Assembly (NCBI GenBank): GCA_029267355.1
Contig: JAJUJA010000002.1
Span: forward strand, 65,386 to 129,385
Reading direction: 5' to 3'
DNA from: Elusimicrobiota bacterium
Lineage (GTDB): Bacteria; Elusimicrobiota; Elusimicrobia; Elusimicrobiales; UBA9959
Length of the DNA: 64,000 bases
Both the position numbers and the translations under genes were made by a program. This document shows, in pieces, positions 1 to 20,964 of the stretch (position 1 is the first letter of the stretch; every line of letters begins with the position of its first letter). The notes under the pieces are model-generated. The model did not search any database and had not been told where the DNA came from. It saw only the letters and a list, made by a program, of their open reading frames with translations.

Positions 1-16
1 TAAAGAAGTTGTTCTC

Positions 17-847
17 ATGAGAAAAAATTTGATGGAAGTAGAGAGACTTTCCAAAAGAGTATTAAAAATCCCATTCGCTGCAGTATTTATTTGTGAAAAC
101 CCGGAAGGTAATAAAATATTACGTGAACTAGAGCCGCCGGAACACAATAAATGGGACAAAGACCGCAGGCCGGATGGCTCTCAGATTATAAAGAACATGG
201 ATGATTGGATAAAAGAAAAATTAAAAGAACTAAGAGAAAACCCCGGCGGCCGAGAAATTGAACTGGCCAGTTTAAGTAAATATCTGCCGGGAGGGTTAAA
301 ATCAAAAACTGGGCATATAAACCCGGAAACTGGAGATAAACAAAAAAAAGGCGATATAGATACAGGGGGAAATATTAAAGGATCATATGAAGAAAAACCA
401 AAAGCGCTTAATTTTGACGGCTCGGCCGAAGCTCCGATTATATACATTCCGGCAATAGAAGAAAGCGGAGATGAGCCTGGCGGGACGGGTTCAGGGAATG
501 CCGGGGGAGGAGGCAGCGGAAAGAGAGGTAATAGAGGGAAAAGAAACAAAAAGCATCCTGACTATAAGTTTAGTTTTAGGTGGATACCATTGAAGAGTAA
601 CGAAGCGATGCTAATTATCCATCCTCACCAAAAAATTAATACCCCTGTTGATGCCTATTTGGCAGCTGCCGGAGAAGATGAGGTTTACAAGCTTAACATA
701 TTAAGTGCAAGATATTCTGACGATAAGCCGGCAGCATTTTCTGGAAGTGCTATTAAACAGATACCACTAGAAGAAAACAAACCATGCAGAATCATCATAG
801 AAATTTCAGGATCAGCACATATTGCTGTAGGTGTGAAACTTATATGA
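17..847 (+). CDS. Hypothetical protein, possibly the C-terminal part of a larger protein that starts upstream of the window
   Basis: The reading frame has no stop between nt 2 and the ATG at 17, so the gene may be 5'-truncated by the window edge. Stop TGA 845-847 overlaps the next gene's ATG (ATGA). It contains a Gly/Lys/Arg-rich low-complexity linker (GGTGSGNAGGGGSGKRGNRGKRNKK). I recognise no family. Confidence 0.5.
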   Translation: MRKNLMEVERLSKRVLKIPFAAVFICENPEGNKILRELEPPEHNKWDKDRRPDGSQIIKNMDDWIKEKLKELRENPGGREIELASLSKYLPGGLKSKTGHINPETGDKQKKGDIDTGGNIKGSYEEKPKALNFDGSAEAPIIYIPAIEESGDEPGGTGSGNAGGGGSGKRGNRGKRNKKHPDYKFSFRWIPLKSNEAMLIIHPHQKINTPVDAYLAAAGEDEVYKLNILSARYSDDKPAAFSGSAIKQIPLEENKPCRIIIEISGSAHIAVGVKLI

Positions 848-1644
848 TTCGAAATAATTTGAAATCTTACCCATTACCGGTTCTTGGCAATGCAGATGAC
901 TACAATGAACCCTTCATAGTAGAAGGTGATTTTCATTTAGCTGGAGAAAAAATAAATATCAGATTGAGGCATTCCATATCTAATAAAGGAATTATAAAAC
1001 TTATTCAGGAAAAAAAGGCGGTATTTGGAAGTCAAATTGAATGCAAGGGGACTTTTTTTAGAAAAATATATACTGGGAACGAAATAACACTGAAAAGTTC
1101 GAGCCTGAAAGATCGTGTTGCTGTTACTCCTTATGTAATAGCCGTGGAAACGATTCGGGAGTTTACTCCGACAAATGTAAATAATGACTATATAGGAGTA
1201 AAATTTAATGTAAACCCAGGAGAATACCTGGCAATCGGCAAAACAGCTTATTTTTCCGCGGACAAAGATTTTGATGTTTCCGAAACTAATATTGGTTCCA
1301 TTATGACGATAAAACCTTCTGAAGACAGCGAGTATTATTCTGCCATTTTTGACAGCGATATAATCGAAATTATGGTTCCAAAGTCAGACATTGAATCATT
1401 GGAAGCTCTTGCATTAAACCCAAAAACAGAAGAAATAATACATGCAATGATTGTACTTCCAGTATTAACGGAGGCTATCAGGAAGTTAAAAAAAACCGAT
1501 TATGACGGAAACAAATGGTTCAATGTCCTTTCTGAAATCACAAATAAAAGAAATATTGACATTAATGAGCCATTTAATGCAGCTCAGCAGTTACTTGATA
1601 AGCCTATAAGCCGCGGTTTAAACTCCTGCACGGAAGATGATTAA
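844..1644 (+). CDS. Hypothetical protein (266 aa), translationally coupled to the upstream ORF
   Basis: ATG at 844 is in frame within the 784..1644 track ORF and forms an ATGA overlap with the upstream stop. AGGTG lies about 14 nt upstream. The protein starts MIRNNLKSYPLPVLGNADDY. I recognise no catalytic motif or family. Confidence 0.55.
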   Translation: MIRNNLKSYPLPVLGNADDYNEPFIVEGDFHLAGEKINIRLRHSISNKGIIKLIQEKKAVFGSQIECKGTFFRKIYTGNEITLKSSSLKDRVAVTPYVIAVETIREFTPTNVNNDYIGVKFNVNPGEYLAIGKTAYFSADKDFDVSETNIGSIMTIKPSEDSEYYSAIFDSDIIEIMVPKSDIESLEALALNPKTEEIIHAMIVLPVLTEAIRKLKKTDYDGNKWFNVLSEITNKRNIDINEPFNAAQQLLDKPISRGLNSCTEDD

Positions 1645-1659
1645 ACTCGGGGAAAATAT

Positions 1660-2457
1660 ATGCCTCAATTAAATAGAGTACTTAAAAACACCAAACTAAC
1701 TGAAATCAGAAAAGCTCTCTCAGCTCTACAAAATCTAAATTCTTATATATCTGGAGACTTCGGATTAACTGACTCAGATTTCCTCCCAGCAGAAGTTGCA
1801 TCATCAGATGAACCTCTGACTTTCGAAAATAACGAGGATAAAAATAAAGAAGATTTGTCTAATTCAATAATGCTGCATAAAAGGCTTAACAAACTTGATC
1901 CGGCGAAAGCATCCGATATCCGACTTTGGACCTATCTGGCCTACCATATAAGCCCTGATTACGTACGGAGGCGCTGGCCAATAAAATACGACAACTTAGA
2001 TTCCGAAAAAGAAGAAGTTAAAAAGGAAGAAGCTAAAAAAATTGCAACACATTGGCTATTCGGAAGCGCTACGGACCGGGCTTTAAGAAGAAATGCACTC
2101 GCCAGGTTGTGGTGGGCGGCCCATCTAACATATGAACCCTGGGAAGATCCTGAGCTGAAACAATTCAAAAAAGACGATTCTTATTTTTATACTAGTATTA
2201 TATTCAGAAATCAAGGAGTCTATTCAGACCTAATGGAAAGAGCCTTTTGCAGGGATAAAAAAATCTTGACAGTAATATTGGACCTTTTTCATGAATATCC
2301 TCAGCTTACCGAGAGAAAATACACACGTGCTTTTGTAAAGCTTGTAAACATAAATTCCGGATTCAAATCACTCGGAGCGCTCACTGTACCTCAACTAAAA
2401 GAGCTGCTGAAGGGAATAAAAGAAAAAGTATTTTCTACCCCCATTGACGAATTATAG
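1660..2457 (+). CDS. Hypothetical protein (265 aa) with Trp/Arg-rich motifs
   Basis: There is a 15-nt gap after the previous gene and a GGGGA RBS-like element. Motifs are RLWTYLAY, RRRWP, THWLFG and LARLWWAAHLTYEPWEDPE. I cannot assign a family with confidence. Confidence 0.6.
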   Translation: MPQLNRVLKNTKLTEIRKALSALQNLNSYISGDFGLTDSDFLPAEVASSDEPLTFENNEDKNKEDLSNSIMLHKRLNKLDPAKASDIRLWTYLAYHISPDYVRRRWPIKYDNLDSEKEEVKKEEAKKIATHWLFGSATDRALRRNALARLWWAAHLTYEPWEDPELKQFKKDDSYFYTSIIFRNQGVYSDLMERAFCRDKKILTVILDLFHEYPQLTERKYTRAFVKLVNINSGFKSLGALTVPQLKELLKGIKEKVFSTPIDEL

Positions 2458-2489
2458 TAACGCGCTTTTTAAATTAATATAATTGATAT

Positions 2490-2903
2490 GTGGCAGACAC
2501 AATCACAAAAAAACATAGAAGCTGGAATATGTCTAGGATTAAGAGCCGAAACACAACTCCAGAAAAAAAGATCCGCAGTCTTTTGCATAGTTTGGGCTAT
2601 AGATTCAGACTGCATAGAAAAGATCTTCCAGGGAAACCAGACATTGTTTTACCGAAATTTAAAACAGTTATTTTTATACATGGATGCTTTTGGCACAAAC
2701 ACAAAGGATGCAAAAGAGCAAACACTCCAAAGTCGAATCTGAATTATTGGATTCCGAAGCTTGCTCGGAATGTAAAAAATGACAAAAAACACATTCGCGA
2801 TTTAAGAAAAAAAGGATGGAAAACCATGGTAATATGGGAATGCACATCAAAAAATCCATCAATACTTAAATCAGTTCTCAGGAAGCTGGAAAATGGAAAA
2901 TAA
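2490..2903 (+). CDS. vsr: Very short patch repair endonuclease (Vsr, T:G mismatch nicking)
   Basis: GTG start. MADTITKKHRSWNMSRIKSRNT...PGKPDIVLPKFKTVIFIHGCFWHKH...VIWECT matches E. coli Vsr end to end as I remember it (MAD..SKNM..I..R.T / PG.PDFV / IF.HGCFWH.H / VWEC). It overlaps the downstream methyltransferase gene by 11 nt. Confidence 0.9.
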   Translation: MADTITKKHRSWNMSRIKSRNTTPEKKIRSLLHSLGYRFRLHRKDLPGKPDIVLPKFKTVIFIHGCFWHKHKGCKRANTPKSNLNYWIPKLARNVKNDKKHIRDLRKKGWKTMVIWECTSKNPSILKSVLRKLENGK

Positions 2904-3867
2904 AAATAAATATTTCAAAGTTGGAAGTCTTTATGCAGGAATAGGAGGAATATGCCGCGCTTTTATAAATGCAGGCGCAAAGGTGGTTTGGGCAAATGAG
3001 TGGGACAAATACGCCTGCATGACATATAGAGAAAACTTTTCTCATCGCCTTTACGAAGAGGATGTTGAAGATTTTATAAAAAAGGACCTAAAAGAAGCGG
3101 AAGACATAGACATTTTAACCTCAGGATTTCCATGCCAGGCCTTTTCAATTGCCGGATACAGAAAAGGGTTTAAAGATGAAAGAGGAAATCATTTTTTTAA
3201 AACTATTGAAGTTTTGAATAAAAAAAGGCCAAAGGCTTTTTTATTTGAAAATGTTAAAAATCTTAGAACTCATGATAACGGCAACACTTATAGGGTTATT
3301 GTGGATTGTATTAAACATGCTAAATACCATTTAATAACGCTGTGTTTAAATACAATGAATCACGGAAATATACCTCAAAACAGAGAAAGGATATATCTAG
3401 TCGGATTCAAAAACAAAGCAGCAGCTGATATTTTTCCTAATCTTGAAAAAAATCCAATACCTTTAACTGTTAAGATCAAAGACTTACTTAAGGAAGGCGC
3501 AGTTGACCCCAAATATTACTACAAAAATTTTGATTGCTATAATCAGCTTAAAGAACAGATCAGGTCTTCTAACACTATTTATCAATGGAGAAGAGTGTAT
3601 GTCCGGGAAAACAAAAAAAATGTTTGCCCGACACTTACAGCAAATATGGGGACAGGAGGACACAATGTTCCCCTAATAAAAGATAGAAAAGGAATAAGGA
3701 AATTAACTCCGGAAGAGTGCGCAAATTTTCAAGGACTTTTCAACTGGAAATTTCCCAATATTGCTGATAGTCATAAATACAAACAAATAGGCAACTCTGT
3801 TAGTATTCCGGTAGTAACAAGAATAGCAAAAGCTATGATTCAAACATTAGAGCAATTTAAAAAATGA
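2893..3867 (+). CDS. DNA (cytosine-5)-methyltransferase
   Basis: Canonical C5-MTase motifs are present: LYAGIGG (I), GFPCQAFSIAG (IV, catalytic Cys), ENVKNL (VI), QNRERIY (VIII) and QIGNSVSIP (X). It sits next to vsr. Confidence 0.95.
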   Translation: MENKNKYFKVGSLYAGIGGICRAFINAGAKVVWANEWDKYACMTYRENFSHRLYEEDVEDFIKKDLKEAEDIDILTSGFPCQAFSIAGYRKGFKDERGNHFFKTIEVLNKKRPKAFLFENVKNLRTHDNGNTYRVIVDCIKHAKYHLITLCLNTMNHGNIPQNRERIYLVGFKNKAAADIFPNLEKNPIPLTVKIKDLLKEGAVDPKYYYKNFDCYNQLKEQIRSSNTIYQWRRVYVRENKKNVCPTLTANMGTGGHNVPLIKDRKGIRKLTPEECANFQGLFNWKFPNIADSHKYKQIGNSVSIPVVTRIAKAMIQTLEQFKK

Positions 3868-5009
3868 ATGAAGAACAATTTTCCCCCTTCTACATCAATC
3901 AGCCAAAAGAGAACAGAGATTACTATATAAAACTGCTCCGCGGTGCAGTCCAAACCAGCATATTATACAGTGAAAACGATAAACCGTACCTTCCATATAG
4001 AGCTGCTGAAAAAATATTTTGTAAAGCTTTTAGAGCTCAGGATGTATCAAGAAAAGACATATCTGTCGACGCTATAAAAAACCAAGAAGGGATAGGAATT
4101 AAAACATTCATCACTGGCGGTAAAAATGGGAAATTCGAAAAAATAGCCGAATTTGTAGACAGAGTTAAATACCCTTTATCTGAAAACAACCCTGAAAAAT
4201 TAATAAAAGAAATTTCAGAATACAGAAATTCAAGAATTGAAGAGGTCAGAAAAGAATTTGATTTAAGAAATATTGTTTACCACTCAATAGTTAGAGCCCC
4301 AGGGAAAATGTACATTTGCGAACAGCCGTTGTCTACTATAAAAACCAACAACTTAACTCTTCAAGGTAAAAAAGGCGCAAATATATATTTTAAAGATACA
4401 TCTTCTAAGTATCTATTTAGTCTTTCTAAACATACTCTATATACACATTTCTTTTATGATTCGCCCTTTGAAGAAATTACTATAAATAAAAACATTGAAA
4501 AAGAACTTCTGAGCTGGACGATACAAGAACTCAGTTCAAAATATGAGACCAAAAAAGAACTCTTAAAAAAATATGAATATGTTTTGCTTCCTTTATACAG
4601 CACGAGACTCGGAGATGTACCTGAAAAAAGCGGCCTTAATCAGTGGAATGCAGGAGGAAGGGAAAGGAATCCAAATGAAGTATACATCCCCATACCAAGG
4701 GTTGTCCATGTAAAGAAACCCAATTTTTTCCCTCCAAAAGACCAGAAATTTATTTTACAAACAGATGACGGATATAAATTTAAAGCAAAAGTATGCCAAG
4801 ATGGATCCAAAGCACTTATGACTGATCACAACAAGGACCTGGGCGAATGGATTTTACGCAAGATTTTAAAAATTCAAGAAGGTGAAAAAGTAACTTTAGC
4901 TCATCTTCAGGCAAAAAATGCTGATACAGTTATTATTTATAAAATTTCTGAGGACACTTATCTTATAAGTCTTGATTCTTTTGGCAGCTTTGCCAAAGAA
5001 TATACATGA
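3864..5009 (+). CDS. Putative type II restriction endonuclease, partner of the C5-MTase
   Basis: ATGA overlap with the MTase stop (3864-3867), the classic position in a vsr-M-R operon. The C-terminal ~130 aa (SGLNQWNAGGRERNPNEVYIPIP...FILQTDDGYKFKAKVCQDGSKALM...LGEWILRKIL) resemble, from memory only, the B3/EcoRII-N/BfiI-C type DNA-binding pseudobarrel. I could not pin a catalytic motif in the N-terminal half. Confidence 0.55.
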   Translation: MNEEQFSPFYINQPKENRDYYIKLLRGAVQTSILYSENDKPYLPYRAAEKIFCKAFRAQDVSRKDISVDAIKNQEGIGIKTFITGGKNGKFEKIAEFVDRVKYPLSENNPEKLIKEISEYRNSRIEEVRKEFDLRNIVYHSIVRAPGKMYICEQPLSTIKTNNLTLQGKKGANIYFKDTSSKYLFSLSKHTLYTHFFYDSPFEEITINKNIEKELLSWTIQELSSKYETKKELLKKYEYVLLPLYSTRLGDVPEKSGLNQWNAGGRERNPNEVYIPIPRVVHVKKPNFFPPKDQKFILQTDDGYKFKAKVCQDGSKALMTDHNKDLGEWILRKILKIQEGEKVTLAHLQAKNADTVIIYKISEDTYLISLDSFGSFAKEYT

Positions 5010-5036
5010 TATTAATATCTCTGGGGAGGTGGTATT

Positions 5037-5468
5037 ATGGCTGGATATTCAAGAATATATTGTATGGGCGAAAAAGGAGGCTTGGGAGGGATTGACGGCA
5101 TTAATCCTATACTTTTTCAGATCCTTGTGGGGGATGCCGGCAGACAATGGTATGAGGTCCATTACTTTGATAAGCACATAAAACCTCTAGCTGGAATCAC
5201 ACGCACGATTCCGGTCCGCCCCGATGACAAAAACGCATTATTAGATGCCTGTATATTATTTTATCCTGATTATTTTTCCAAATGTCCTTCTATAAAAAAA
5301 GTTTCTTCTAACCTCTTAGAGTCATCCCATAACGGCCTTTTAGATTTCAATTTAAACAAAGAGAACATTCCTGAGTACTGGGATAAGTTGCGCAAAGAAA
5401 GCGAACCATTTTTTAAAAAATTTTATATATTAGAGGCAAAACTAAATGAATATAAAAAACAACCTTAG
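5037..5468 (+). CDS. Hypothetical small protein (143 aa), putative partner of the HEPN-GGCT protein
   Basis: A GGAGGTG RBS lies 5-11 nt upstream. The 3' end overlaps the next gene by 23 nt. It has a glycine-rich N-terminus (GEKGGLGGIDG). I recognise no family. Confidence 0.5.
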   Translation: MAGYSRIYCMGEKGGLGGIDGINPILFQILVGDAGRQWYEVHYFDKHIKPLAGITRTIPVRPDDKNALLDACILFYPDYFSKCPSIKKVSSNLLESSHNGLLDFNLNKENIPEYWDKLRKESEPFFKKFYILEAKLNEYKKQP

Positions 5469-6378
5469 CAAATGGTGGGAAACCGCCAGAGCAAATTCAA
5501 TTGCTGATGCTATTGGACATATAAATGAAGCTAAATACAAAAAGAATATTATAGAAAAGTTTTCTTCTTTATCTAAGGCAGCCAATAAATTATGGACAGA
5601 ATACAATTATCAAAACAATCTAACAAAAGGCGATACGGCTTCTTTTGAGGCGCTGCTTCGTAACACTCTCTCTTATGCCGATAAGGCCAAGATAGCAGAC
5701 TCATTAGAATTAATGAATCTGGTAAAATTAGAACCCAAAATAATGGACCATTATTGCTTAAATAAAAATCATTATAACCCGGAAAATATATCCAAAGAGC
5801 ATCAAAAAGCCGCTTCTGAAAAGCACCGGGAACTTATCAAGAAATTTAACATTTGCTTAACTGAAAAAACGGACGAGAAATTGAATCAAATTATTAAAAA
5901 ATTGGCAGACCTTCTTTTTGTGGTCCGGTCGAATATCGCGCATGGAGAAAAAACAATAAACGGACCAGATTTTAAAAAAAATTTTCGGGACAAAATGGTA
6001 TGTGAAACCGCAGTTCCGGTTATGAAATTAATTTTTGATTCGTTTTTTAACCAACCAGACAATCGTTTAGCGGTTTATGGAACCTTAAAACCTGAAGGAT
6101 CCAAACATTACAAGATTTCAAGTATAGATGGCACTTGGATTAACGCCTCTTTAACCGGACGGATATATAGTGGAGATGATAGTCTCCCATATTTCATGTG
6201 GGATTTATCAGGTGATAATATCAAAGTAAAAATAGTTGAATCTTCTAAACTCCCTGACATATGGTTATACCTGGACAATTTTGAAGGCAAATCATACAAG
6301 CGAATATGGGTTTTGGCAAATACTCTAGATAATAAATTGATTGTTGCTAACATATACGCATCGAACAAACTCCAATAA
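5446..6378 (+). CDS. HEPN-domain (Rx4H) protein fused to a gamma-glutamylcyclotransferase (AIG2/GGACT-like) domain
   Basis: The N-terminal ~200 aa are all-alpha-looking and carry R161-SNIA-H166 (VVRSNIAHGEK, nt 5926-5943), the HEPN Rx4-6H signature. The C-terminal ~100 aa carry YGTLKPEG (nt 6076-) and LDNFEG (Glu at nt 6283-6285), the GGCT-fold N-terminal motif and the catalytic-Glu motif. Confidence 0.7.
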   Translation: MNIKNNLSKWWETARANSIADAIGHINEAKYKKNIIEKFSSLSKAANKLWTEYNYQNNLTKGDTASFEALLRNTLSYADKAKIADSLELMNLVKLEPKIMDHYCLNKNHYNPENISKEHQKAASEKHRELIKKFNICLTEKTDEKLNQIIKKLADLLFVVRSNIAHGEKTINGPDFKKNFRDKMVCETAVPVMKLIFDSFFNQPDNRLAVYGTLKPEGSKHYKISSIDGTWINASLTGRIYSGDDSLPYFMWDLSGDNIKVKIVESSKLPDIWLYLDNFEGKSYKRIWVLANTLDNKLIVANIYASNKLQ

Positions 6379-6591
6379 AAATATCGGAAGGATGGGCACA
6401 AATAAAGACGTGTTTTGGTAAGTGAAAAGCTAATTATGTGCTACGCTTTTTCGGCTTATCCTGACTCATTTTGTCACAATTCACAACATATCTCATCCTA
6501 ACATTTGCTGTAAAGGGCATTAGAAGAAGACATAGACGAATCAGGTAATATAAGCGGCCTGTTCTGAGAACGGATTAATTAAGAAGCAGGT

Positions 6592-7269
6592 TTATTCAAT
6601 TGAAAATTTATTGAAAAAAAGCGCAATGCCCAGTATTATAAGGGCTATGCCGGCAATTTTCTCCACATAAAAGAATATGCTCTTTTTGGAAGAAATGAAT
6701 TTGAAAAAAGAGGCGCTGAAAAGCCCCGCTATCAAGAAAGGCACACCCAGCCCCAGCGAGTAAACAAAAAGCATCAAAAATCCCTTATAAACCGCAGCCG
6801 ATGAAGCCAGCATCAAAACGCCGGCGAGAACCGGTCCTATGCATGGAGACCAGCCGAAAGCAAAAGCTGCACCCATAAGAAAAGAGGAAAAAAAGCTTTT
6901 ATCCGCAGTTTTCAAAAAGGCGCGCTTTTCATAATTCAGCAGATTTATATTAAGGAAACCTGCTGTGTGGGCGCCGAGTATAACAAGAGCCAGGCCCATA
7001 ATTTTTTGGAATATGTCCTTATGAGAAAGCAGAAAAGAGCCGATATATGAAGCCGCCGCACCCATAAGGGAAAAGACCAGAGAAAAGCCCAGAAAGAAAA
7101 AAAGCGAAGCGTAAAAAACCTTCTTATGTATTCCGCTTTCGCCTTCCTTAACTATCTGCGAAGCTGAAACGCCCGATATCATTGACAAATAGGCCGGGAT
7201 AAGAGGCAGAACGCAAGGGGAAAAAAAAGTCAAAACTCCGGCCCAGAATGTCAGAACAAATTCTTTCAT
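6592..7269 (-). CDS. ccdA: Cytochrome c biogenesis / thiol-disulfide electron transporter CcdA (DsbD family)
   Basis: Polytopic membrane protein with the two conserved Cys motifs FSPCVLPLIPAY and WSPCIGP. Confidence 0.85.
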   Translation of the reverse strand: MKEFVLTFWAGVLTFFSPCVLPLIPAYLSMISGVSASQIVKEGESGIHKKVFYASLFFFLGFSLVFSLMGAAASYIGSFLLSHKDIFQKIMGLALVILGAHTAGFLNINLLNYEKRAFLKTADKSFFSSFLMGAAFAFGWSPCIGPVLAGVLMLASSAAVYKGFLMLFVYSLGLGVPFLIAGLFSASFFKFISSKKSIFFYVEKIAGIALIILGIALFFNKFSIE

Positions 7270-7754
7270 TTGGTCTTTTTATCCTTTGAAACAGGCGCGT
7301 TTTTTTTATCTGAAGCCGGTTTATTTTCGCTTTTATTTTCCGGCTTTTTAATTTCTGCCGGCTGCTCAAGCTCTATCTTTTCTATATCCATATTGCCCCA
7401 GCTTGAGCCCTTCATAAAAAAGAAAACATTCCTGAATTTTCCCGTTGATGGGTCGGCAAATTGAACCTTCACTTTTTTTTCTGTTTCTGAAAGATTGTCA
7501 ACTGACAATACGGCGAGATATTTGAGCGAGAGCACTTTGCCGCTTTTTTTGTCTTCAATAAAGAAAGCGCCTTTCAGAGATTCATCCTTCTTTATATAAT
7601 CCTCAACTATGCTCTTTATATCATCGTCTGAATCCTGAACCATCACCCCGCTTTCTTCGCCGGCTGAATTTTCCGAAACAACCGGCTCCTCATAGTTTTC
7701 ATCAGCGGCCAGCAATGGCGCAGCCAATAGCAAAAGAATAAGAGTTTTTTTCAT
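7266..7754 (-). CDS. Secreted hypothetical protein
   Basis: Signal peptide MKKTLILLLLAAPLLAADE. There are 4-nt overlaps with both neighbouring genes. No family recognised. Confidence 0.5.
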   Translation of the reverse strand: MKKTLILLLLAAPLLAADENYEEPVVSENSAGEESGVMVQDSDDDIKSIVEDYIKKDESLKGAFFIEDKKSGKVLSLKYLAVLSVDNLSETEKKVKVQFADPSTGKFRNVFFFMKGSSWGNMDIEKIELEQPAEIKKPENKSENKPASDKKNAPVSKDKKTK

Positions 7755-8374
7755 TTCATCCCCCTTGAAATTTTTGAATAAAGAACGGTTTTAAGCTTGA
7801 CCTTCCCCGCTTTAGGCCATACAGCCTGCTCAACGCCTTTCATAACCTCATTTTCAAGACCCTTGGCTTTAAGTATCAAATCGCATACTTCCCTTACTGC
7901 GCCGTCGCCGCCGTTTCTCTCTGAGACGAAATCGCAGACTTTTTTTATCTCTGAAACGGAATTTTTAGGGCAGCAGGAAAGGCCCGCTCTTTTAAGTAAA
8001 GGCAAATCGGTGAGATCGTCGCCCATATAGGCGGCTTCACTGTAATCAATGCCCTCCGCAGCCATTATCTCTTCCATCGGCTTTATTTTTGAAAGAAATC
8101 CCTGATAGGCATAGCTCATAGAAAGCATTTTAGCCCTTTCCTGAGCCCCGGCGGCTTCTCTGCCTGTTATTATACCCGTCTTAATTGAAAACTTGTTCAA
8201 AAGCATAAGCCCTATGCCGTCCTGGGCATTAAAAGCCTTTATTTCCTGAGTCTCCTTGCCGGAAGAAAAAAAGTACATTTTGCCGTCAGTCAGCACGCCG
8301 TCAACATCCATTATGAAAACCTTTATCTTCTCCGCTTTTTTCAATATGTTCATCCGTTTTTTTCCTTTATCCAT
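7751..8374 (-). CDS. kdsC: KDO 8-phosphate phosphatase KdsC (HAD superfamily)
   Basis: HAD motifs IMDVDGVLTDG and GDDLTDLP, with overall KdsC-like layout. The alternative start at 8353 (MNILKK) would abut the upstream stop. Confidence 0.8.
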   Translation of the reverse strand: MDKGKKRMNILKKAEKIKVFIMDVDGVLTDGKMYFFSSGKETQEIKAFNAQDGIGLMLLNKFSIKTGIITGREAAGAQERAKMLSMSYAYQGFLSKIKPMEEIMAAEGIDYSEAAYMGDDLTDLPLLKRAGLSCCPKNSVSEIKKVCDFVSERNGGDGAVREVCDLILKAKGLENEVMKGVEQAVWPKAGKVKLKTVLYSKISRGMK

Positions 8375-9384
8375 TCATCGCAAAGCGCTATCTCCTTGCT
8401 TCTTGCCGCATAATCGGAAGGCTTTGGGCCTGCATATTCAAAGAAAAACCATTTTATGCTGTCTTCCAGCCATGCGCGCAGGGGGGTTGATTTCAATTTC
8501 AGAAGGTTTTGGGCTTTTTCTATGTCAAGGATATAATCCCTCTTGCTGGAATAAGGAGAAGCGGCCAGATTAAACCCCTTTTCCTTAAGCCAGCCGAAAT
8601 CGGCTGGAATCCCCAGCAAAGGCTTGCCCATTATTTCAGCAGACATTTTCAGAAAATCTCCCAAGGAAATAGTCTCCATATCGCCTAAATTGAAAATTTC
8701 TCCAGCAGCGCCTTCCTGCTTCTCCATTATGGCGTTTATCCATGAAGCCATATCTCCGCTGAAGGCAAATCTCTTTGAAAAGCTCCAGCCGGGAGCGAAA
8801 AAAGGATAGCCGTCGGCTATTCTTATCCAGTAGGAATAAGCCCTCAAAGTATTGTCGCCCGGCCCTATTATTATAGGCGGCCTTATTATGCATACCGGAA
8901 ATTTGATCTCTTCAAAGGCTTTGATAAATTCCTGCTCGGCAAGATATTTACCGCAGGCATAATCCCAAAATCCGCCTTTTTTAAGCTCTATTGAATCTTT
9001 AAAGATTTCTGTATGTTTCTCTCTGAAAGGAGAAGCCAGGTCCTTTATAAGATAATAAACAGCTTCGGAACTTGTCATTATATAGAGGCCGCAGCGGCCT
9101 GAAAACTTTTTCACGGCCTTTTGCGCATCCTCCCGGCCATAGCATATATTGTCAAAAATGACATCCCAGGTTTCCAGAGACAGGCGGGACAAATCCGCTT
9201 CAACTGTCCTGTCGCCCTTAATGAATTTCACATCCAATGGAAAGTTCGGAGGGGGTTCCTTTCTGGAAAAAACGGTTACCTGATGCCCGCCGGAAACAGC
9301 CAGTCTGGCAGTCTGAGCGCCGAAGAAGGAAGTTCCGCCCAAAATGAGAATTTTCAAATTTCCTCCCGGGAAAAGAGGCGTCAA
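8350..9384 (-). CDS. NAD(P)-dependent epimerase/dehydratase family protein
   Basis: N-terminal Rossmann motif ILILGGTSFFG and SDR-extended length (344 aa). 4-nt overlap with dut. Confidence 0.8.
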   Translation of the reverse strand: MTPLFPGGNLKILILGGTSFFGAQTARLAVSGGHQVTVFSRKEPPPNFPLDVKFIKGDRTVEADLSRLSLETWDVIFDNICYGREDAQKAVKKFSGRCGLYIMTSSEAVYYLIKDLASPFREKHTEIFKDSIELKKGGFWDYACGKYLAEQEFIKAFEEIKFPVCIIRPPIIIGPGDNTLRAYSYWIRIADGYPFFAPGWSFSKRFAFSGDMASWINAIMEKQEGAAGEIFNLGDMETISLGDFLKMSAEIMGKPLLGIPADFGWLKEKGFNLAASPYSSKRDYILDIEKAQNLLKLKSTPLRAWLEDSIKWFFFEYAGPKPSDYAARSKEIALCDEWIKEKNG

Positions 9385-13084: not shown

Positions 13085-13098
13085 AATTCCATTTATTT

Positions 13099-13454
13099 AA
13101 GCGGCGGACTGTACCCCGGATTCTGTCAGCCTTGCGGCCGGCTGTCATTTATCTGAGCGGATTACTCTGCGCTGCGCGTAAAAACGCGCGCGGCAAGGGG
13201 CCTGCGCATATTTATCCTTGCTCCACGCGGGGTTTTCACTGCCTCCGGCGTTGCCGCCGGAGCGGTGCGCTCTTACCGCGCCTTTTCACCCTTACCCGCC
13301 GTTAAGGCGTTGGCGGGCGGTATATTTTCTGCTGCACTTTCCGTTGCCGCCGGGTTACCCCTGCGGCCCCCGGTCTTTCGACCGGCGCGTTCCCTTGAGG
13401 AGTCCGGAAGTTCCTCCGCGGCTTAAAGCCGCGGCGACAGCCCATCCGCCGCTT
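13099..13454 (-). ncRNA. rnpB: RNase P RNA (bacterial type A-like)
   Basis: The reverse complement reads AAGCGGCGGAUGGGCUGUCGCCGC...GAGGAACUUCCGGACUCC...GGUAAGGGUGAAAAGGCGCGGUAAGAGCGCACCGC...GGAGCAAGG...ACAGAAUCCGGGGUACAGUCCGCCGCUU. This is collinear with E. coli M1 RNA conserved regions as I remember them. The 5' and 3' ends pair to form P1. Confidence 0.9.
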
Positions 13455-15064: not shown

Positions 15065-18000
15065 ATGTCTTGGGCTGAAAAGCCCGGAGGCGAGATGGAA
15101 TTTGAAGAAAATGTAAAACTGGATCCCCAGGGGCTGCAGGACCTTGAAACGGCGAAGCTGTCCCTGAAATGGACAGTTGAAAAGCTTAAAGAGCTGAAAG
15201 AAGAATTAGCCGTATTGAAAGAAGAGAAAATCAAGAGGGAAAACCAGATAAGAGATTTGATACTCAGAGCCGAGCAAAGCGAAGAACTTGTAAAGAAGTG
15301 GCAGACGACCGTAAAGGCCTGGGAAGAAAATGTAAGAACTCAGTCTGAAATGGAGGCGGAGCTTAAAAAGAAGCTCAGACAGCAGATATTAAACGAGGAA
15401 ATCTCGCATCTGCTTTCGGCAAGAAAAAGGCTGGAAGAAGAAATCCGTCAGCTTAAAGAACAATTGGCTCAAAGGGAAGAGGAAATAGGCAGGATAAGAT
15501 CGCAATGGGCCGAGGAGCTTGGAAAAATTTCAAAATTCAAGGACGCCGAAGCTCTCGCCCTGGTGGAGAAATACAAGGAAGAATATGAAAAAAACTCTCT
15601 GTCGCTGAAAGAAAATCTTGAAAAATTTGCCGCTGAAAGCGAAGAAAAAAGGCGCGCCGCCATAGAAGAGCTCAGATTTAATATTGAAAAGGTTTATGAG
15701 GAAAAGCTGGCAAGCCTTGAGTCCATGCTGGCGAAAGAAAGGGAAAAGAACGCCGCTCTGGCGGCTGAAGCCCACAAAAAAGCGCTTGAAAAAGCTGACG
15801 CACAGGCTGAAGATTTAAGACAGAAATATGAAAAGGAAAAAGAATTTTTAATCGAAGAAATAGAAAAAAGAAAACAGCAGGCCCAGCAAGCGGTTTCGGC
15901 CGAACTGGCGAGACTTTCTCAGGAATATCTGAAAAAAGCCGCAGAGCTTGACACCATTATAATAGCCGAAAGGGAAAAAGCCGCGCAGGAATTTGCGCAA
16001 AAAGAAAGGGAACTGGCCTTGAAGTATGAAGCCAAACTTGAAGAAGCGGAAAACAGGCATGCGGCGGCCCTTGCAGAGATGACAAGAAAGATAGAAGAAT
16101 TTGCGGCTAAACGCGAAGAAGAATATGTAAATACAAGACTTAAACTGGAAGAGAATCTTCTTGAGCTGATAAAAAAGCATGACTCTCAAACCGCGCAAAA
16201 TTTTGAGAAAGCTGCCGAAGAGATCAGGGGCAAATGGGCTCAAATGGCGGCCGAACTCGCCGGCGAAAAAACAAGGCTGCTTGCCGAAAATGACGCCCGC
16301 TGGAGCAAAGAACTGCAGAAGATCTCGCTGGAAGCGGAGCTTAAATTCCAGCAAGATCTTATTAAGGCAAGACAGGAGCTTGAAGCACAAAAAGAGCAGG
16401 ATATAGAAAAGATAAAATCGGAGCTTGAAAGACTTTACAAGGAAAAGATTGAAAGGCATAAAGCGGCGCTGGAAAACGAGTTTTCGCAAAAAGCGGCCCG
16501 GCTTCAGGAAGAAGCGGACAATCAGATAGAGAAAGCCAGACAGGAAGCGCTTAGGGAGAGAAAGCAGTATCTTGCCATAAAGGAAGACGAACTGGCCGCA
16601 GAAAAGGAAAAGCTTAGAAAAGAATTTTCCGCCTACAGAAACTCTCTGAAAGAAAAATTTGAGCATTTTGAAGACGAACTTAAGCTGAAATATGCCGAGA
16701 AAGAGGCTGCGCTTGAAGCGAAATACGCCAAAGAGACAGAAGAGAAAAAGCAGGCGCTGCAGCAGGAAAATGAAACATGGCTTAAGGCGATGAAAGCTGA
16801 GTTTGAGGAAAAAGAAAAGATCTTAACCGGCGAAAAACAGGAACTGGCCGAAAAAATCTCCCGGCTGACCGCCTCTTTTCACGAAAGACTTTCGCAAAAA
16901 GAGCTTGAAATGAGCGCCAAATATGAAAGCTGGCTTAAAGAGGCCGAAGAAAAAACGGCGCAGGCGCTTAAAAGAAAAGAGGAAATTTTAAAGAAGCAAT
17001 ATGAAAACAGGGAACTTCTTCTTGAAAGCAGGGAAAAGAAAATGCAGGAGGAGCTGGCCGAGGAGAGAAATAAATTTGAGGAAAAATTAAAGGAGCTGAA
17101 AAAAGATAACGAGCTGGTCCTTGCCGCTGAAAAAGAAAAGCTTAAGGAAGAAGTAATAACTCAGAAAGAAGCCCTGAGAGCCGCCGAAAAGGAATTGAAA
17201 GCGGCCGTTGACAGAAACGAAAAGGAAAAAATGGAATTCAAGGAAAACCTGACGGCTCAATTTGCCGTAAAGGAGCAGAACCTTTTTGATTCTCTATCAA
17301 AGGCGAAAGATGAAATGAACAGACAGGTTCTTGAAAAAAAGGAAAGCCTTGAAGCCGAATATGAGAGAAGAAAGGAAGCTCTCAGGAACAAAGAAAGGGC
17401 GCTTGAAGCTGTTTACGACGAAAAAGCGAAGAAACTTGAGGCGGAATTTTCGCAAAATAAGGCCTCGCTTGAAAAAATGATGAATTCGGAAATTTCAAAG
17501 GAGAAACTCAAGCTTGAGGAACTGTTTGAAACCAGAAAAGAAGAGCTTCAGAAGGCTCATTTTGAAAAAATGGCGCAAATGGAAGCTTCCTACTCGCAGA
17601 AACTTGCTGACATTTCGCAAAGACTGTCGGCGGAGTATGAGGCCAAACTGAAAGACCTGCAGGAAAAAATCAGGGAAGAAAAAGCGGCCTACGAAAAGGA
17701 AAAATCTCAGGAAATGGAAAAGTTTCTTGAAAACTTTTCCAGAGAAAAAGAGGAATGGGAAAAGAAAAAATTTGAAATACTGGAAAATGAAAGACTCAAT
17801 CTCCAGGCCCAGTATGAAAAGAAGGAAGCCGAATTAAACGCCTTCATCTCAAGACATAAAGAAGCTCTGCAGGATGAAAAGAACAAGCTTGAACAGGCCT
17901 ATAACGCCAGACTTAATACGCTTGAAAGGGAATATTTTCAGCATTTTGAAAAAGCCAGAAGCCAGATGGACAAACTGAGAAAGGAGTTTGAGGATGCTTT

Positions 18001-18148
18001 CAGGGAAAAGGAAAAAGAGCTTGAAGAAGAGAAAAACAAAGCCGTATCCAGAGCTCTGTCAAGGGAAAAAGAGCTTGTCGAAAAATACAAGGCCAAGGAA
18101 GAGGAGTTAGTAAAATACTGGCAGAATAAATTTAAGGAAGAGAAATAA
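15065..18148 (+). CDS. Giant E/K-rich coiled-coil protein (1027 aa)
   Basis: A continuous heptad-like E/K/L/A-rich sequence. I see no proline after roughly the first 25 residues. An L-x3-Y-E-x-K motif recurs. No enzymatic or membrane domain is visible. Confidence 0.8.
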   Translation: MSWAEKPGGEMEFEENVKLDPQGLQDLETAKLSLKWTVEKLKELKEELAVLKEEKIKRENQIRDLILRAEQSEELVKKWQTTVKAWEENVRTQSEMEAELKKKLRQQILNEEISHLLSARKRLEEEIRQLKEQLAQREEEIGRIRSQWAEELGKISKFKDAEALALVEKYKEEYEKNSLSLKENLEKFAAESEEKRRAAIEELRFNIEKVYEEKLASLESMLAKEREKNAALAAEAHKKALEKADAQAEDLRQKYEKEKEFLIEEIEKRKQQAQQAVSAELARLSQEYLKKAAELDTIIIAEREKAAQEFAQKERELALKYEAKLEEAENRHAAALAEMTRKIEEFAAKREEEYVNTRLKLEENLLELIKKHDSQTAQNFEKAAEEIRGKWAQMAAELAGEKTRLLAENDARWSKELQKISLEAELKFQQDLIKARQELEAQKEQDIEKIKSELERLYKEKIERHKAALENEFSQKAARLQEEADNQIEKARQEALRERKQYLAIKEDELAAEKEKLRKEFSAYRNSLKEKFEHFEDELKLKYAEKEAALEAKYAKETEEKKQALQQENETWLKAMKAEFEEKEKILTGEKQELAEKISRLTASFHERLSQKELEMSAKYESWLKEAEEKTAQALKRKEEILKKQYENRELLLESREKKMQEELAEERNKFEEKLKELKKDNELVLAAEKEKLKEEVITQKEALRAAEKELKAAVDRNEKEKMEFKENLTAQFAVKEQNLFDSLSKAKDEMNRQVLEKKESLEAEYERRKEALRNKERALEAVYDEKAKKLEAEFSQNKASLEKMMNSEISKEKLKLEELFETRKEELQKAHFEKMAQMEASYSQKLADISQRLSAEYEAKLKDLQEKIREEKAAYEKEKSQEMEKFLENFSREKEEWEKKKFEILENERLNLQAQYEKKEAELNAFISRHKEALQDEKNKLEQAYNARLNTLEREYFQHFEKARSQMDKLRKEFEDAFREKEKELEEEKNKAVSRALSREKELVEKYKAKEEELVKYWQNKFKEEK

Positions 18149-18150
18149 AT

Positions 18151-20964
18151 ATGGACTGGGATTTTCTGGAATACCCGCAAGTCTCGCAGGAAGAAATAGA
18201 TAATGCCAAGATAATTCTCCGCCTTTCAAGCGAGCTCAAGGAAAAGGAAGCCATGCTCGCATCCATGCGCGCAAAAATAGAGGAAGAAGCTCAAAAAGCG
18301 GCAAAAACCAAAGAACTTGAGTATGAAACCATAATGAAGCTGCGCGAGGAAAAATTTTCCAGAAAAGAGGAAGAAATAAGCAGAATTCTGTCTGAGAAGG
18401 AAAGTCAGCTGTGGAACAAATACAAGGAGCTTCTTGAACAGACAGCCGAAAGGCAAAGGCAGGAAACCGAGGCTGAAAAGGCCAGAATGGAGCAAATTCT
18501 GGCGGAAAAGGAAAAGGAACTCAACGATTACAGGGAAAAAATAACGCAGGAAAGCAGGGAGCTTTTCTCAAAGTGGCGCAAGGAAAAAGATTGGGAGACG
18601 GAAAGGGAAAAGGAAATTTTCCTCTCCCGCCTTGAAGAACTTAAGGAAGATTACAGAAATAAGCTGGAAGAAAACTCCCGCAAGATAGAGCAGATCTATG
18701 AGGCCAAGACTCAAAATCTGAGAGAAACGCTTGAAAACAGGCATAAGGCCGAGCTGGAAAAACTTAAGGACGATTTTAAGAAAGAGCTGGAAGAAAAACT
18801 TGCCGCCGAAACAGCGAAAATAGCCGGGGAATATTCCCTGAAATTCGATCAAAATTCGGCCGACTTCAAACATTACCTGTCGGAAATAAAAAACCATCTT
18901 CAAAAAGAATATGAGGAAAAACTCAAGGCGTATAAAGAGAATGAATTTCTGGAAATAAACAGGCTGAAGGAAGAATTGCAGCTTAAAAATCTGGAAATAG
19001 AAAGAATAAAGGAAGAGTTTTCGGCAGCGTCGGAAAAACTTAAAAAAGAATATGCAGCTGCCGGGGAAAGAAACAGGATTGAAAGTGAAAAAATTCAAAA
19101 AGAGTACATTTTGAAAAAGGAGCAGCTGGAAGAAGAGTTTGAAAAAAGATTTTCCGATATTGAGGAAAAAGAGAGCGAAATAAAGGAAGAGGCCGCGGCA
19201 AAAATAAAGGAACTGGAAGCCGTTTACGCAGAAAAAACGAAAATATTAAACGAAAAGGAACGCGAATTAAAGGAAAGGAAGGAATATTTTGAAAACCTTG
19301 AAAAGGAAATACAGCAGACGCTTTTCAACAAGGAAAAAGAGATAGCACTGGCCCATCAGGCCGCCGCCGAAGCGTACAAAAGCTCGCTTTTGCAGGCCTA
19401 TGAAGCCAAGGAAAAAATCCTGGAAAGAGAAAAAGAAAATCTCGCCAAAAAAGCGGCTGAGCTTGAAAAAGAGAGAAAGAGATTTATTAATGAAACAGAG
19501 AGGGCTATTGCCGAAAAGAACGCGGTTTTGCAGCTCTTAAAAAAGGAAAGGGAAGAGTTTAAAGAGAAAAAAGAGGAATTTGCAAACGAGCTTATTGAAC
19601 AGGCAAAAAACAGGGAAAAGGAGTTTGAAGCGGCTTTGAGAGAGAAATTTGAGATTGAGTTAAGAATCGAAAAGGATAAAGCTCTTGCGGAAAAGCTCAG
19701 CTGGGAAAAAATAAAGGAGAATTTCAAGGAGGAAATAGAGTCTCTCCGAAAAAGGCACGAAGCGGAAACCGAAGAAAAGAGCAGGCAGTACAAGGCTCTT
19801 GCGGAAAAAATAAGATCAGAAAAGGAACTTGAGATAAGATCCATAAAAGAGGCGTGGGAAGCGGAAAGAAGCAAAATGCTTGAATCATTTTCGCTTGAAA
19901 GGGAGAAATTGCTTGAAGAAAAAAGAAACGAACTTTCCATGCAGGCCGCAGCTTTAAGAAAAGAATTTGAAGCCGCGCGGTATGCGCTTAAAATCGACCT
20001 TGAGATCAAGCTGCAGGAAACATATGAAGATTTTGAGCAAAAGATAAGGATAAGAGAAGCCGAAGAAAAGGAGAGGATAGATTCCCTCAATGAGAAAATA
20101 AAACGGCTCAATCTTGAGCTTGAGAAAAGTCTTTCGCAAAAGAATGAGCTCAATAAAAGAATAATGGAAACTGAAGAGATATCTGCGATTCTCATGCAGG
20201 AAAAAGCGGAACTGGAAAAGGAAAAAAACGAAACGGCCCTGATGATAAAAAGATCGCTTGAAAAAGAGTTCTGGGAGAAAACAAAAAGGCTTGAAGAAAG
20301 GTATATGAACCATATTTCGCAGACCGCCCTGCACTATCAGGAAATACAAAGAGCGAAGGAAGAGGAATTTTTCTCCAAAATACAGGCTATTAAAAGCCGG
20401 TATGAACAGGAAATAAAAAGCCAGGAGGAAAGGCTTCAATCATTCTATGAACAGAAACATCAGCATTTGGCCAAAAGTCTTGAGGAAACCTACGCGCTCA
20501 GGGAGAAAAATCTTCTTTTAAGAATAAAACAGATAGAAACTTCTTATGAAAATCTTCTTAAACAAAAGGCGGAAGAAATAAACAGGGACACTCTTTTAAA
20601 TAAAAACCTTGAAGAGCTTGAGAAACAGCTCAGAGAAAAGAACAGGGAACTGTCGGAAAAAATACTGACGCTGGAAAACACGCTTGCCCTCAAGGAAAAG
20701 GAGCTTTCTGACAGATACGAAGAGAAAAGAAAAAATCTTGAACAGGAATACCATGTTAAACTTTCCCAGATAGAATCGGAAAAATCCAAGCTTAAGGCCC
20801 TGACTGAACAGGAGCAGGAGATAATCTCAAATTTAAGAAAAAGAGAAGAGCAGTTAAAGGAAACCTACAGGGAAAAAGAGGCCGCTCTTGTCAGAGAATT
20901 CAACAGCGTAAGGGAAAAACTGGAACTTGAGTATCAGAAAAAGCTTAAAGATAAAGGGATATAG
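18151..20964 (+). CDS. Giant E/K-rich coiled-coil protein (937 aa), paralogue-like partner of the upstream gene
   Basis: ATG lies 2 nt after the upstream TAA. Composition and the L-x3-Y-E-x-K periodic motif match the upstream protein. Confidence 0.8.
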   Translation: MDWDFLEYPQVSQEEIDNAKIILRLSSELKEKEAMLASMRAKIEEEAQKAAKTKELEYETIMKLREEKFSRKEEEISRILSEKESQLWNKYKELLEQTAERQRQETEAEKARMEQILAEKEKELNDYREKITQESRELFSKWRKEKDWETEREKEIFLSRLEELKEDYRNKLEENSRKIEQIYEAKTQNLRETLENRHKAELEKLKDDFKKELEEKLAAETAKIAGEYSLKFDQNSADFKHYLSEIKNHLQKEYEEKLKAYKENEFLEINRLKEELQLKNLEIERIKEEFSAASEKLKKEYAAAGERNRIESEKIQKEYILKKEQLEEEFEKRFSDIEEKESEIKEEAAAKIKELEAVYAEKTKILNEKERELKERKEYFENLEKEIQQTLFNKEKEIALAHQAAAEAYKSSLLQAYEAKEKILEREKENLAKKAAELEKERKRFINETERAIAEKNAVLQLLKKEREEFKEKKEEFANELIEQAKNREKEFEAALREKFEIELRIEKDKALAEKLSWEKIKENFKEEIESLRKRHEAETEEKSRQYKALAEKIRSEKELEIRSIKEAWEAERSKMLESFSLEREKLLEEKRNELSMQAAALRKEFEAARYALKIDLEIKLQETYEDFEQKIRIREAEEKERIDSLNEKIKRLNLELEKSLSQKNELNKRIMETEEISAILMQEKAELEKEKNETALMIKRSLEKEFWEKTKRLEERYMNHISQTALHYQEIQRAKEEEFFSKIQAIKSRYEQEIKSQEERLQSFYEQKHQHLAKSLEETYALREKNLLLRIKQIETSYENLLKQKAEEINRDTLLNKNLEELEKQLREKNRELSEKILTLENTLALKEKELSDRYEEKRKNLEQEYHVKLSQIESEKSKLKALTEQEQEIISNLRKREEQLKETYREKEAALVREFNSVREKLELEYQKKLKDKGI

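Follow-up and report, generated by a model that had tools for sequence, protein, structure and literature searches.

The first 6,591 bases of the 64,000-nucleotide (nt) stretch of Elusimicrobiota DNA analysed here (the window; contig JAJUJA010000002.1, positions 65,386 to 129,385) are poor in guanine plus cytosine (G+C) and are probably the right-hand end of a horizontally acquired island, which would comprise three independently mobile modules arranged head to tail in one direction. By its sequence matches, module 1 is an already catalogued candidate defence cassette, PDC-M33 (open reading frames ORF1 to ORF3), and module 2 is assigned as an ordinary type II restriction-modification (R-M) operon with a Vsr gene (ORF4 to ORF6). 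Module 3 consists of ORF7 and ORF8, which comparison of their homologues identifies as an evolutionarily linked pair. The pair is conserved, is named in no library searched, and is centred on a predicted gamma-glutamyl bond cleavage. The features of the block and of its right border are listed below.

2 to 847 (ATG at 17), + strand: ORF1, C-terminal 281 amino acids (aa) of a PDC-M33A homologue; PADLOC expectation value (E) 2e-26
844 to 1644, + strand: ORF2, 266 aa, PDC-M33B homologue whose ATG overlaps the ORF1 stop by 4 nt; PADLOC E 9e-53
1660 to 2457, + strand: ORF3, 265 aa, PDC-M33C homologue, DUF6339; Pfam E 2e-37, PADLOC E 2e-34
2490 to 2903, + strand: ORF4, Vsr very-short-patch repair endonuclease, 137 aa; TIGR00632 150 bits, Pfam Vsr E 3e-32
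2893 to 3867, + strand: ORF5, C5 cytosine DNA methyltransferase, 324 aa, overlapping vsr by 11 nt; TIGR00675 276 bits
3864 to 5009, + strand: ORF6, type II restriction endonuclease, 381 aa; PADLOC REase_II PDLC03479 E 2e-71
5037 to 5468, + strand: ORF7, conserved protein of 143 aa, partner of proteins with an RSNxxH-helical and a GGACT domain
5446 to 6378, + strand: ORF8, 310 aa, with an all-alpha domain (1-205) and a GGACT/AIG2-like domain (206-310)
6379 to 6591, no strand: non-coding spacer, 213 nt, G+C 0.38, right border of the low-G+C block
6592 to 7269, - strand: ccdA-like gene, convergent with the ORF block

The base composition of the block differed from that of the remaining sequence. 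Its G+C content was 0.358 compared with 0.433 elsewhere in the window, the lowest value of all segments of 6591 nt (segments starting after 6591 had a mean of 0.433, a standard deviation of 0.011 and a minimum of 0.410). G+C at third codon positions (GC3) ranged from 0.27 to 0.35 in the eight genes of the block and from 0.40 to 0.53 in the 45 other genes, and the two ranges were disjoint (Mann-Whitney U=0, p=2e-9). Within the first 20 kb, the best change point of G+C fell at about 6709 (z=9.8), and the tetranucleotide distance of the block to the rest was 0.338, compared with 0.156 +/- 0.05 for other segments.

All eight ORFs, spanning 2-6378, lie on the + strand; neighbours overlap by 4, 11, 4 and 23 nt or are separated by gaps of 15, 32 and 27 nt. 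An earlier note on this DNA had described such a co-directional series of eight ORFs, with overlaps and with gaps of at most 32 nt, as a distinct accessory block next to core genes. Its layout was reproduced by the ORF table, and composition and ORF map together agree with a distinct block. The six spot counts of G+C on which it had relied (16, 14, 19, 31, 33 and 26) were all exact; the shift that it read from them was upheld once G+C by segment and GC3 had been computed, and the right border that it placed at 6379-6591 is close to the change point. ORF1 is indeed a + strand ORF, but its proposed start at 17 did not hold. The gene is cut by the window edge, because its frame is open from base 2, the ATG at 17 is an internal conserved methionine of full-length homologues, and the PADLOC match covers model positions 335-623 of 627. 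The first gene thus starts beyond the window edge, and the left border of the block lies outside the window, as had been supposed. To the right, the core genes that the note had announced were found, the flank consisting of housekeeping genes (CcdA/DsbD_TM, KdsC, epimerase, Dut, RNase P RNA, RNase H and MutS). The spacer at 6379-6591 matched no Rfam family, and promoter-like and terminator-like matches across 1-7400 were no commoner than in shuffled sequence.

No conserved synteny was found for the block, and its modules recur separately in unrelated lineages; the window proteins checked (n=8) formed singleton clusters at 90% identity. Weighing against acquisition, the window contains no tRNA gene, border repeat or integrase, with the left end lying beyond it, and a scan of GTDB genomes for ccdA gave no match, nor was a related genome found for comparison of the site. 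Taken together, the block is best read, from its sequence features, as the end of an acquired accessory or defence island. It resembles defence islands and the R-M-embedded candidates of Payne et al. in that an R-M operon is co-directional with small accessory cassettes of foreign composition and the modules recur separately on plasmids. It differs in that a mechanism is known for only one of its three modules and that the island ends, the mobility genes and any empty site are outside view. As an island it is ordinary, since an R-M operon with accessory cassettes in an AT-rich block is the textbook defence-island picture. The label 'defence island', which the earlier note had used, is reasonable in that the R-M operon is present; for modules 1 and 3 we infer a defence role from context alone.

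ORF1, ORF2 and ORF3 match the PADLOC models PDC-M33 A, B and C, and the three matches are adjacent and in order. The earlier note had proposed a PADLOC run and had described two modules that it could not place. When the program was run on the window it returned the PDC-M33 A/B/C and R-M matches, so only ORF7/ORF8 are left unplaced. PDC-M33 belongs to a set of 145 phage-defence candidates that Payne et al. (bioRxiv 10.1101/2024.01.29.577857) predicted by 'guilt-by-embedding', from genes that lie within R-M, BREX and DISARM loci. In the literature searched, PDC-M33 and DUF6339 were not named and no experimental test of PDC-M33 was found, which weighs against the role proposed here for module 1. 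ORF1 aligns with plasmid M33A proteins, the conserved LExPxHNxW stretch included, and its full-length relatives are about 620-650 aa long. ORF2 matched no Pfam or NCBIfam family, and Pfam and PDB searches for domains in M33A and M33B were empty.

Homologues of M33 were found on 11 plasmids by tblastn with ORF2. Five unrelated plasmids, from Planococcus, Deinococcus, Arthrobacter, Priestia and Ligilactobacillus, were examined (L111, Planococcus, 3877-7617; L114, Arthrobacter, 4870-8615; also L112, L113 and L115), and on each of them M33 is a four-gene unit in the order ~75-aa gene, A (~620-650 aa), B and DUF6339 protein. On the Deinococcus plasmid, M33A is annotated as a protein of 452 aa and the DUF6339 protein as hypothetical. 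The A-B-C order is the same in the window; the plasmids add the ~75-aa gene before A, whereas A is cut here by the window edge. The cassette adjoins R-M genes on all five plasmids as well as in the window, and the R-M genes near it on the plasmids include a C5 methyltransferase (Dcm) in four cases and Vsr in three. PDC-M33 may be described as a candidate defence cassette that would habitually travel beside R-M genes. The window contributes an independent example from a chromosome, in which the cassette is followed head to tail by a Vsr-Dcm-REase operon, and this company, here and in the five plasmid contexts, suggests a functional tie that can be tested.

The recognisable R-M operon of the earlier note was borne out for each of its genes. 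The Vsr match (150 bits) exceeded the TIGR00632 cut-off of 97.85, and that of ORF5 to TIGR00675 (276 bits) the cut-off of 100.65; ORF5 also matched Pfam DNA_methylase (E 6e-75) and PADLOC MTase_II (E 2e-106). ORF6, which overlaps dcm by 4 nt, matched PADLOC REase_II over its full length (239 bits), and its residues 247-361 correspond to Pfam RE_NgoFVII_C, a B3-like DNA-binding domain (E 3e-18; 66 bits, cut-off 23.8). On the basis of these family matches, module 2 is classed as an ordinary type II R-M operon with Vsr. It shares the overlapping vsr-dcm-REase genes with the known Vsr-linked C5-methyltransferase type II R-M systems. From what is established for these families, the methyltransferase would mark the host's own sites; the restriction enzyme would read its site through the B3-like domain and cut unmethylated incoming DNA; and Vsr would nick the T:G mismatches that arise from deamination of 5-methylcytosine, keeping methylated sites from mutating away.

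ORF6 is comparable to the NgoFVII/NgoAVII/CglI enzymes (PMC4267653) in its C-terminal B3-like domain. In contrast to them, it carries no N-terminal PLD HxK nuclease domain, its own N-terminal domain being unassigned, and has no SF2 N-protein gene at its side. Full-length R.NgoVII (PDB 4rct) aligned with ORF6 only over its own residues 277-342, R.NgoVII 4rd5 matched in the B3 part only (E 0.007), and the sole H-x-K of the ORF6 translation falls, by inspection, inside the B3 region. No helicase family match was found among the eight block genes, and an SF2 N-protein was not found nearby. The site of NgoAVII and CglI, GCSGC, was not depleted in the host sequence (6592-64000). Several palindromes were under-represented in the same sequence, namely TCGA (28 compared with 91 expected), ACGT (21 compared with 69), GATC and CTAG. 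Their depletion hints at other R-M pressures on the genome. As it cannot be tied to the operon at 2490-5009, site avoidance was rejected as a guide to the specificity of that operon.

ORF8 was modelled by AlphaFold2 with high confidence (predicted local distance difference test score, pLDDT, 93.5) as an all-alpha domain (1-205) followed by an alpha/beta domain. A Foldseek search retrieved GGACT structures as matches of the second domain (1vkb, E 2e-4; 3jub, E 5e-4; probability 1.00, target TM score ~0.6). ORF8 itself reached 23.0 bits with Pfam GGACT, barely over the cut-off of 22.8; all 30 family members compared matched this model, the best with E 2e-10. In an alignment of 30 homologues, Y211 was invariant and G212-T-L nearly so, and the invariant or nearly invariant residues of the C-terminal block also included D277 and F279-E280-G281. 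A profile search of PDB aligned E280 to the catalytic E82 of human GGACT. The sequence and the model make it very likely that the C-terminal domain is an active enzyme of the gamma-glutamyl cyclotransferase type. As it keeps the catalytic glutamate, it would most likely cleave a gamma-glutamyl-amine bond, with cyclisation of the glutamyl part to 5-oxoproline. ORF8 is like the GGACT, GGCT, ChaC and BtrG cyclotransferases (human GGACT, 3JUB/3JUC; Bacillus subtilis YkqA, 2QIK) in its fold, its YGTL loop and its catalytic glutamate. It differs from GGACT-type cyclotransferases in its additional helical domain of about 205 aa, which has an invariant polar motif of its own, and in its pairing with ORF7, once as a fusion.

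The invariant block of the N-terminal domain, in the same alignment of 30 homologues, reads R161-S-N-I-x-H166-G-E-K-T ... D175 ... R181. The Rx4H motif that it contains (R161...H166) was invariant in the 30 sequences, with a polar residue after the arginine. HEPN RNases (Rx4-6H; HEC-08, HEPN-MNT toxins) share with ORF8 an invariant R-x4-H in a helical domain; of these, HEC-08 is a protein of defence (Payne et al.). Unlike theirs, the conserved stretch of ORF8, HGEKTxxGPDxxKxxRD, is longer and occupies the C-terminal end of a long helix. A HEPN profile was matched by one of the 30 members (HEPN_MAE_28990, E 0.11), domain-only scans at E<=10 found no HEPN, and Foldseek with ORF8 retrieved no solved HEPN structure. 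Because no HEPN profile or structure was matched, the relation of this domain to HEPN is one of resemblance. The GGACT domain of ORF8 would therefore be best described as joined to a helical domain with a putative invariant RSNxxHGEKT pocket, HEPN-like by motif only. A profile of the N-terminal domain, searched against 1.84 and 5.8 billion proteins, retrieved its own family only, among the matches listed, and the profile search of PDB with ORF8, like Foldseek, matched the GGACT domain and nothing else.

The ORF8 family is small and scattered. About 300 relatives were found, and the N-domain profile, run on 1.84 billion representative proteins, retrieved 312 clusters at 50% identity. The family occurred in 19 of 185,579 species genomes, all of them metagenome-assembled genomes (MAGs) and assigned to about a dozen lineages. 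Two ORF8-like proteins, P0164 (519 aa) and P0179 (452 aa), share a similar N-terminal extension, which in P0164 matches a TFIIB repeat (PF00382, E 3e-12); this suggests, from sequence, an archaeal form linked to a domain for DNA binding or transcription. In a Myxococcota MAG (L027, 6237-8444) the ORF8 homologue is split into an N part (6237-6707) and a C part (8001-8444), and the ~1.3 kb between the halves contain two ORFs that resemble, by eye, an insertion sequence transposase.

For ORF7, 63 homologues were found at 45-60% identity, none with a precomputed Pfam domain, and relatives were present in 142 metagenome loci. Its invariant residues are M1-A2-G3, D20, N23, R36-Q37-W38, D70, C72, W115 and R119. 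The AlphaFold2 model (pLDDT 90.3) had no Foldseek neighbour in PDB or BFVD, and a profile search of PDB returned nothing meaningful.

Several arrangements tie ORF7 to ORF8. In an Ignavibacteria MAG, an ORF7 homologue of 53% identity overlaps the start of an ORF8 homologue of 37% identity by 4 nt. An adjoining partner was found in 28 of 80 ORF7 metagenome loci, on either side of ORF7; it was ORF8-like in 13 and domain-swapped in 15. The swapped partner, of about 285 aa, has the GGACT domain first and then a helical domain with YYQVRSNITHRGK. Comparison of ORF8 with the swapped family by hhalign gave a probability of 94% for GGACT against GGACT (E 9e-8) and of 52% for the helical motifs (E 1.4e-4), compared with 0.1% for the cross controls. 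Other neighbours of ORF7 carry only a helical Rx4H domain, or combine an AIG2-like domain with an Rx4H domain of another kind. Finally, a metagenome protein of 684 aa (P0123) combines an ORF7-like part (46% identity, E 5e-42), a Gamma_PGA_hydro domain (PF05908, E 1e-38) and ORF8-like helical and GGACT domains. This fusion ties ORF7, a poly-gamma-glutamate hydrolase and ORF8 to gamma-glutamyl chemistry. Adjacency in either order, the swapped version and the one fusion thus identify ORF7 and ORF8, at the level of sequence, as an evolutionarily linked pair.

The tie between the two genes is not obligatory. ORF7 was found beside only about one of 22 distinct ORF8 loci, within 6-8 kb, and many ORF7 loci have neighbours other than an ORF8-like or swapped gene. 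As most ORF8 relatives have no ORF7, ORF7 is better seen as an accessory partner than as an obligatory antitoxin, and it might serve ORF8 as a regulator, an adaptor or a substrate carrier. Ten ORF7 loci without a helical/GGACT partner (L049, L058-L060, L062, L064, L066, L069, L071 and L082) are largely from marine metagenomes. In this partnerless lineage, every locus encodes upstream a Cys-rich protein of ~113 aa, to which eight of the ten add a 71-aa protein, and five of the ten encode a protein of ~259 aa downstream on the opposite strand.

Our best guess is that ORF7 and ORF8 would form a conflict or stress module whose target is gamma-glutamyl-linked. That module 3 is a defence system is put forward tentatively and from context only. 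In its fuller form, which is possible rather than probable, the pair would be an undescribed two-component module for conflict or immunity, scattered horizontally, with gamma-glutamyl cyclotransferase chemistry at its base. The pair begins 27 nt past the R-M operon, whose strand and foreign composition it shares. One ORF8 relative adjoins a type I R-M operon and an integrase, integrases lie directly beside an ORF7/ORF8-type pair in L046 and L032, and a SACS-helicase protein of 1635 aa and an ATPase_2/AAA_22 ATPase are encoded next to relatives. PADLOC, run on 150 neighbours in a pooled scan that had no per-protein rate and no control, returned BrxL, MTase_I (type I R-M subunits), SoFic and several PDC families. 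The rarity and scatter of the ORF8 family, and the finding of neither family in the IMG/VR viral contigs searched, also count in favour. If the proposal is true, prokaryotic defence would include an effector or switch mechanism of a new kind, in which a gamma-glutamyl bond is cleaved in a polymer, protein or metabolite. The pair deserves experiment, being 1.3 kb in length with clear catalytic residues and a confident structure model.

Several results weigh against a defence role, in addition to the missing HEPN matches and the loose tie between the genes. ORF7 and ORF8 matched no PADLOC model, and no NCBIfam or Pfam family beyond GGACT. Nine of ten large immediate neighbours elsewhere had no good PADLOC match (one or two matched weakly), and these neighbours included housekeeping proteins (an oxidoreductase, a SerA-like protein, DnaE and a transporter). 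Given this mostly negative scan of ten neighbours and the uncontrolled pooled scan, the context evidence is therefore mixed. In the literature searched, no link of GGACT/AIG2 to HEPN or phage defence and no described defence system with gamma-glutamyl chemistry was found. In L007 (755-2289), the gene directly upstream of an ORF8 homologue is chaC. In L052 (2517-5248), a pyridine-nucleotide-disulphide oxidoreductase gene lies 38 nt upstream of, and co-directional with, an ORF7 and swapped-domain pair, and an M28 peptidase gene follows the pair. L061 (4555-7282) has the same gene sizes and order as L052, its oxidoreductase-sized gene being matched by size. The ChaC and disulphide oxidoreductase neighbours are a hint of glutathione, thiol or gamma-glutamyl metabolism. 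A phage origin of ORF7 and ORF8 was also considered and was rejected, as neither family was found in the IMG/VR viral contigs searched.

A metabolic or stress role for module 3 is a live possibility, held with no more than tentative confidence, and other regulatory or toxin roles take up the remainder. The pair would then be an accessory that turns over gamma-glutamyl compounds, such as glutathione or its conjugates, gamma-glutamyl amines or poly-gamma-glutamate, and hitch-hikes at the edge of the island; we regard this specific form as possible. It is consistent with the invariant GGACT catalytic residues, with the fusion to a poly-gamma-glutamate hydrolase in P0123, with the chaC, oxidoreductase and peptidase genes just described, with the conserved cysteines in ORF7, and with the finding that most ORF8 relatives stand alone among ordinary genes. 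It fits less well with the very rare and patchy spread of ORF8 (19 of 185,579 species genomes in about a dozen lineages), and conflict systems typically show domain swapping, fusions and flips of gene order. The integrases, the type I R-M operon and the SACS-helicase protein with its ATPase beside relatives, and the position and composition of the pair in the window, likewise argue against a metabolic role, and no transporter or pathway genes are conserved with the pair.

A second alternative concerns modules 1 and 2, which might be one composite R-M-like system (M33A-B-C-Vsr-Dcm-REase) with M33A as an NTPase working with the restriction enzyme. Parallels would be the SF2 N-proteins of the B3-domain enzymes R.CglI and R.NgoAVII and the paraMORC ATPases predicted in R-M operons. 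NgoFVII-type B3-domain restriction enzymes require an ATPase partner (PMC4267653), and prokaryotic MORC-type ATPases have been linked to R-M systems (PMC2292703). The six genes all run in one direction with no gap above 32 nt, M33 adjoins R-M genes in the window and on all five plasmids (with Dcm in four and Vsr in three), and ORF6 carries an NgoFVII-type B3 domain. In addition, the N-terminal half of M33A, which lies beyond the window and was viewed in plasmid homologues, shows by eye the GHKL/Bergerat-like motifs RExxQNxxDA, DYNTxGL and GSFGIGK. This GHKL reading was not confirmed by any Pfam or PDB profile match, and ORF6 lacks the PLD domain of N-protein-dependent enzymes. The R-M neighbours on the plasmids differ in kind (AlwI, MutH/Sau3AI families, type I M/S, MmeI-like) and lie on either strand and on either side of M33, and embedding in R-M, BREX or DISARM loci, by which PDC candidates are defined, is expected for independent systems too. 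We therefore consider a composite system unlikely and retain PDC-M33 and the R-M operon as separate modules.

HEPN toxins with small partners are common, and ORF7/ORF8 might be a type II toxin-antitoxin pair, with ORF8 as a HEPN RNase toxin and ORF7 as the small antitoxin that overlaps it. The smaller gene does overlap the larger by 23 nt, and the Rx4H motif is invariant. ORF7 was absent from the 6-8 kb around ORF8 in about 21 of 22 distinct loci, and ORF8 is therefore not lethal on its own; many ORF7 loci, in turn, have no such partner. This non-obligatory tie argues against a simple toxin-antitoxin pair. Conservation is also higher in ORF7 (45-60% identity) than in ORF8 (32-47%), which is not the pattern of typical antitoxins; no HEPN profile or fold was matched; and the conserved GGACT catalytic site would be left without a role. 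Such a pair is decidedly improbable, and we keep to the reading of ORF7/ORF8 as a conflict or stress module.

It is most improbable that the block is native, with a low G+C caused by the amino-acid content or low expression of its genes: the lack of an integrase, tRNA gene or repeats in the window and a second tetranucleotide outlier at 14-21 kb, which stems from protein composition, would suit this explanation, whereas GC3, largely free of amino-acid choice, parts all eight genes from all 45 others, the shift starts near the border of the gene block, and the three modules were all found again on plasmids and in unrelated hosts.

That second outlier (tetranucleotide distance 0.331) coincides with two giant coiled-coil genes. 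They are tandem ORFs on the + strand, at 15065-18148 (1027 aa) and 18151-20964 (937 aa), and encode E/K/A-rich coiled-coil proteins, the 1027-aa one matching no NCBIfam family. Across 15065-20964 the AT skew is ~0.4 and the GC skew ~0.2, which amounts to a very strong purine skew. Further left, between the histidine-kinase and RNase H genes, a class A bacterial RNase P RNA lies on the - strand at 13096-13453 (Rfam RF00010, 220 bits, full length).

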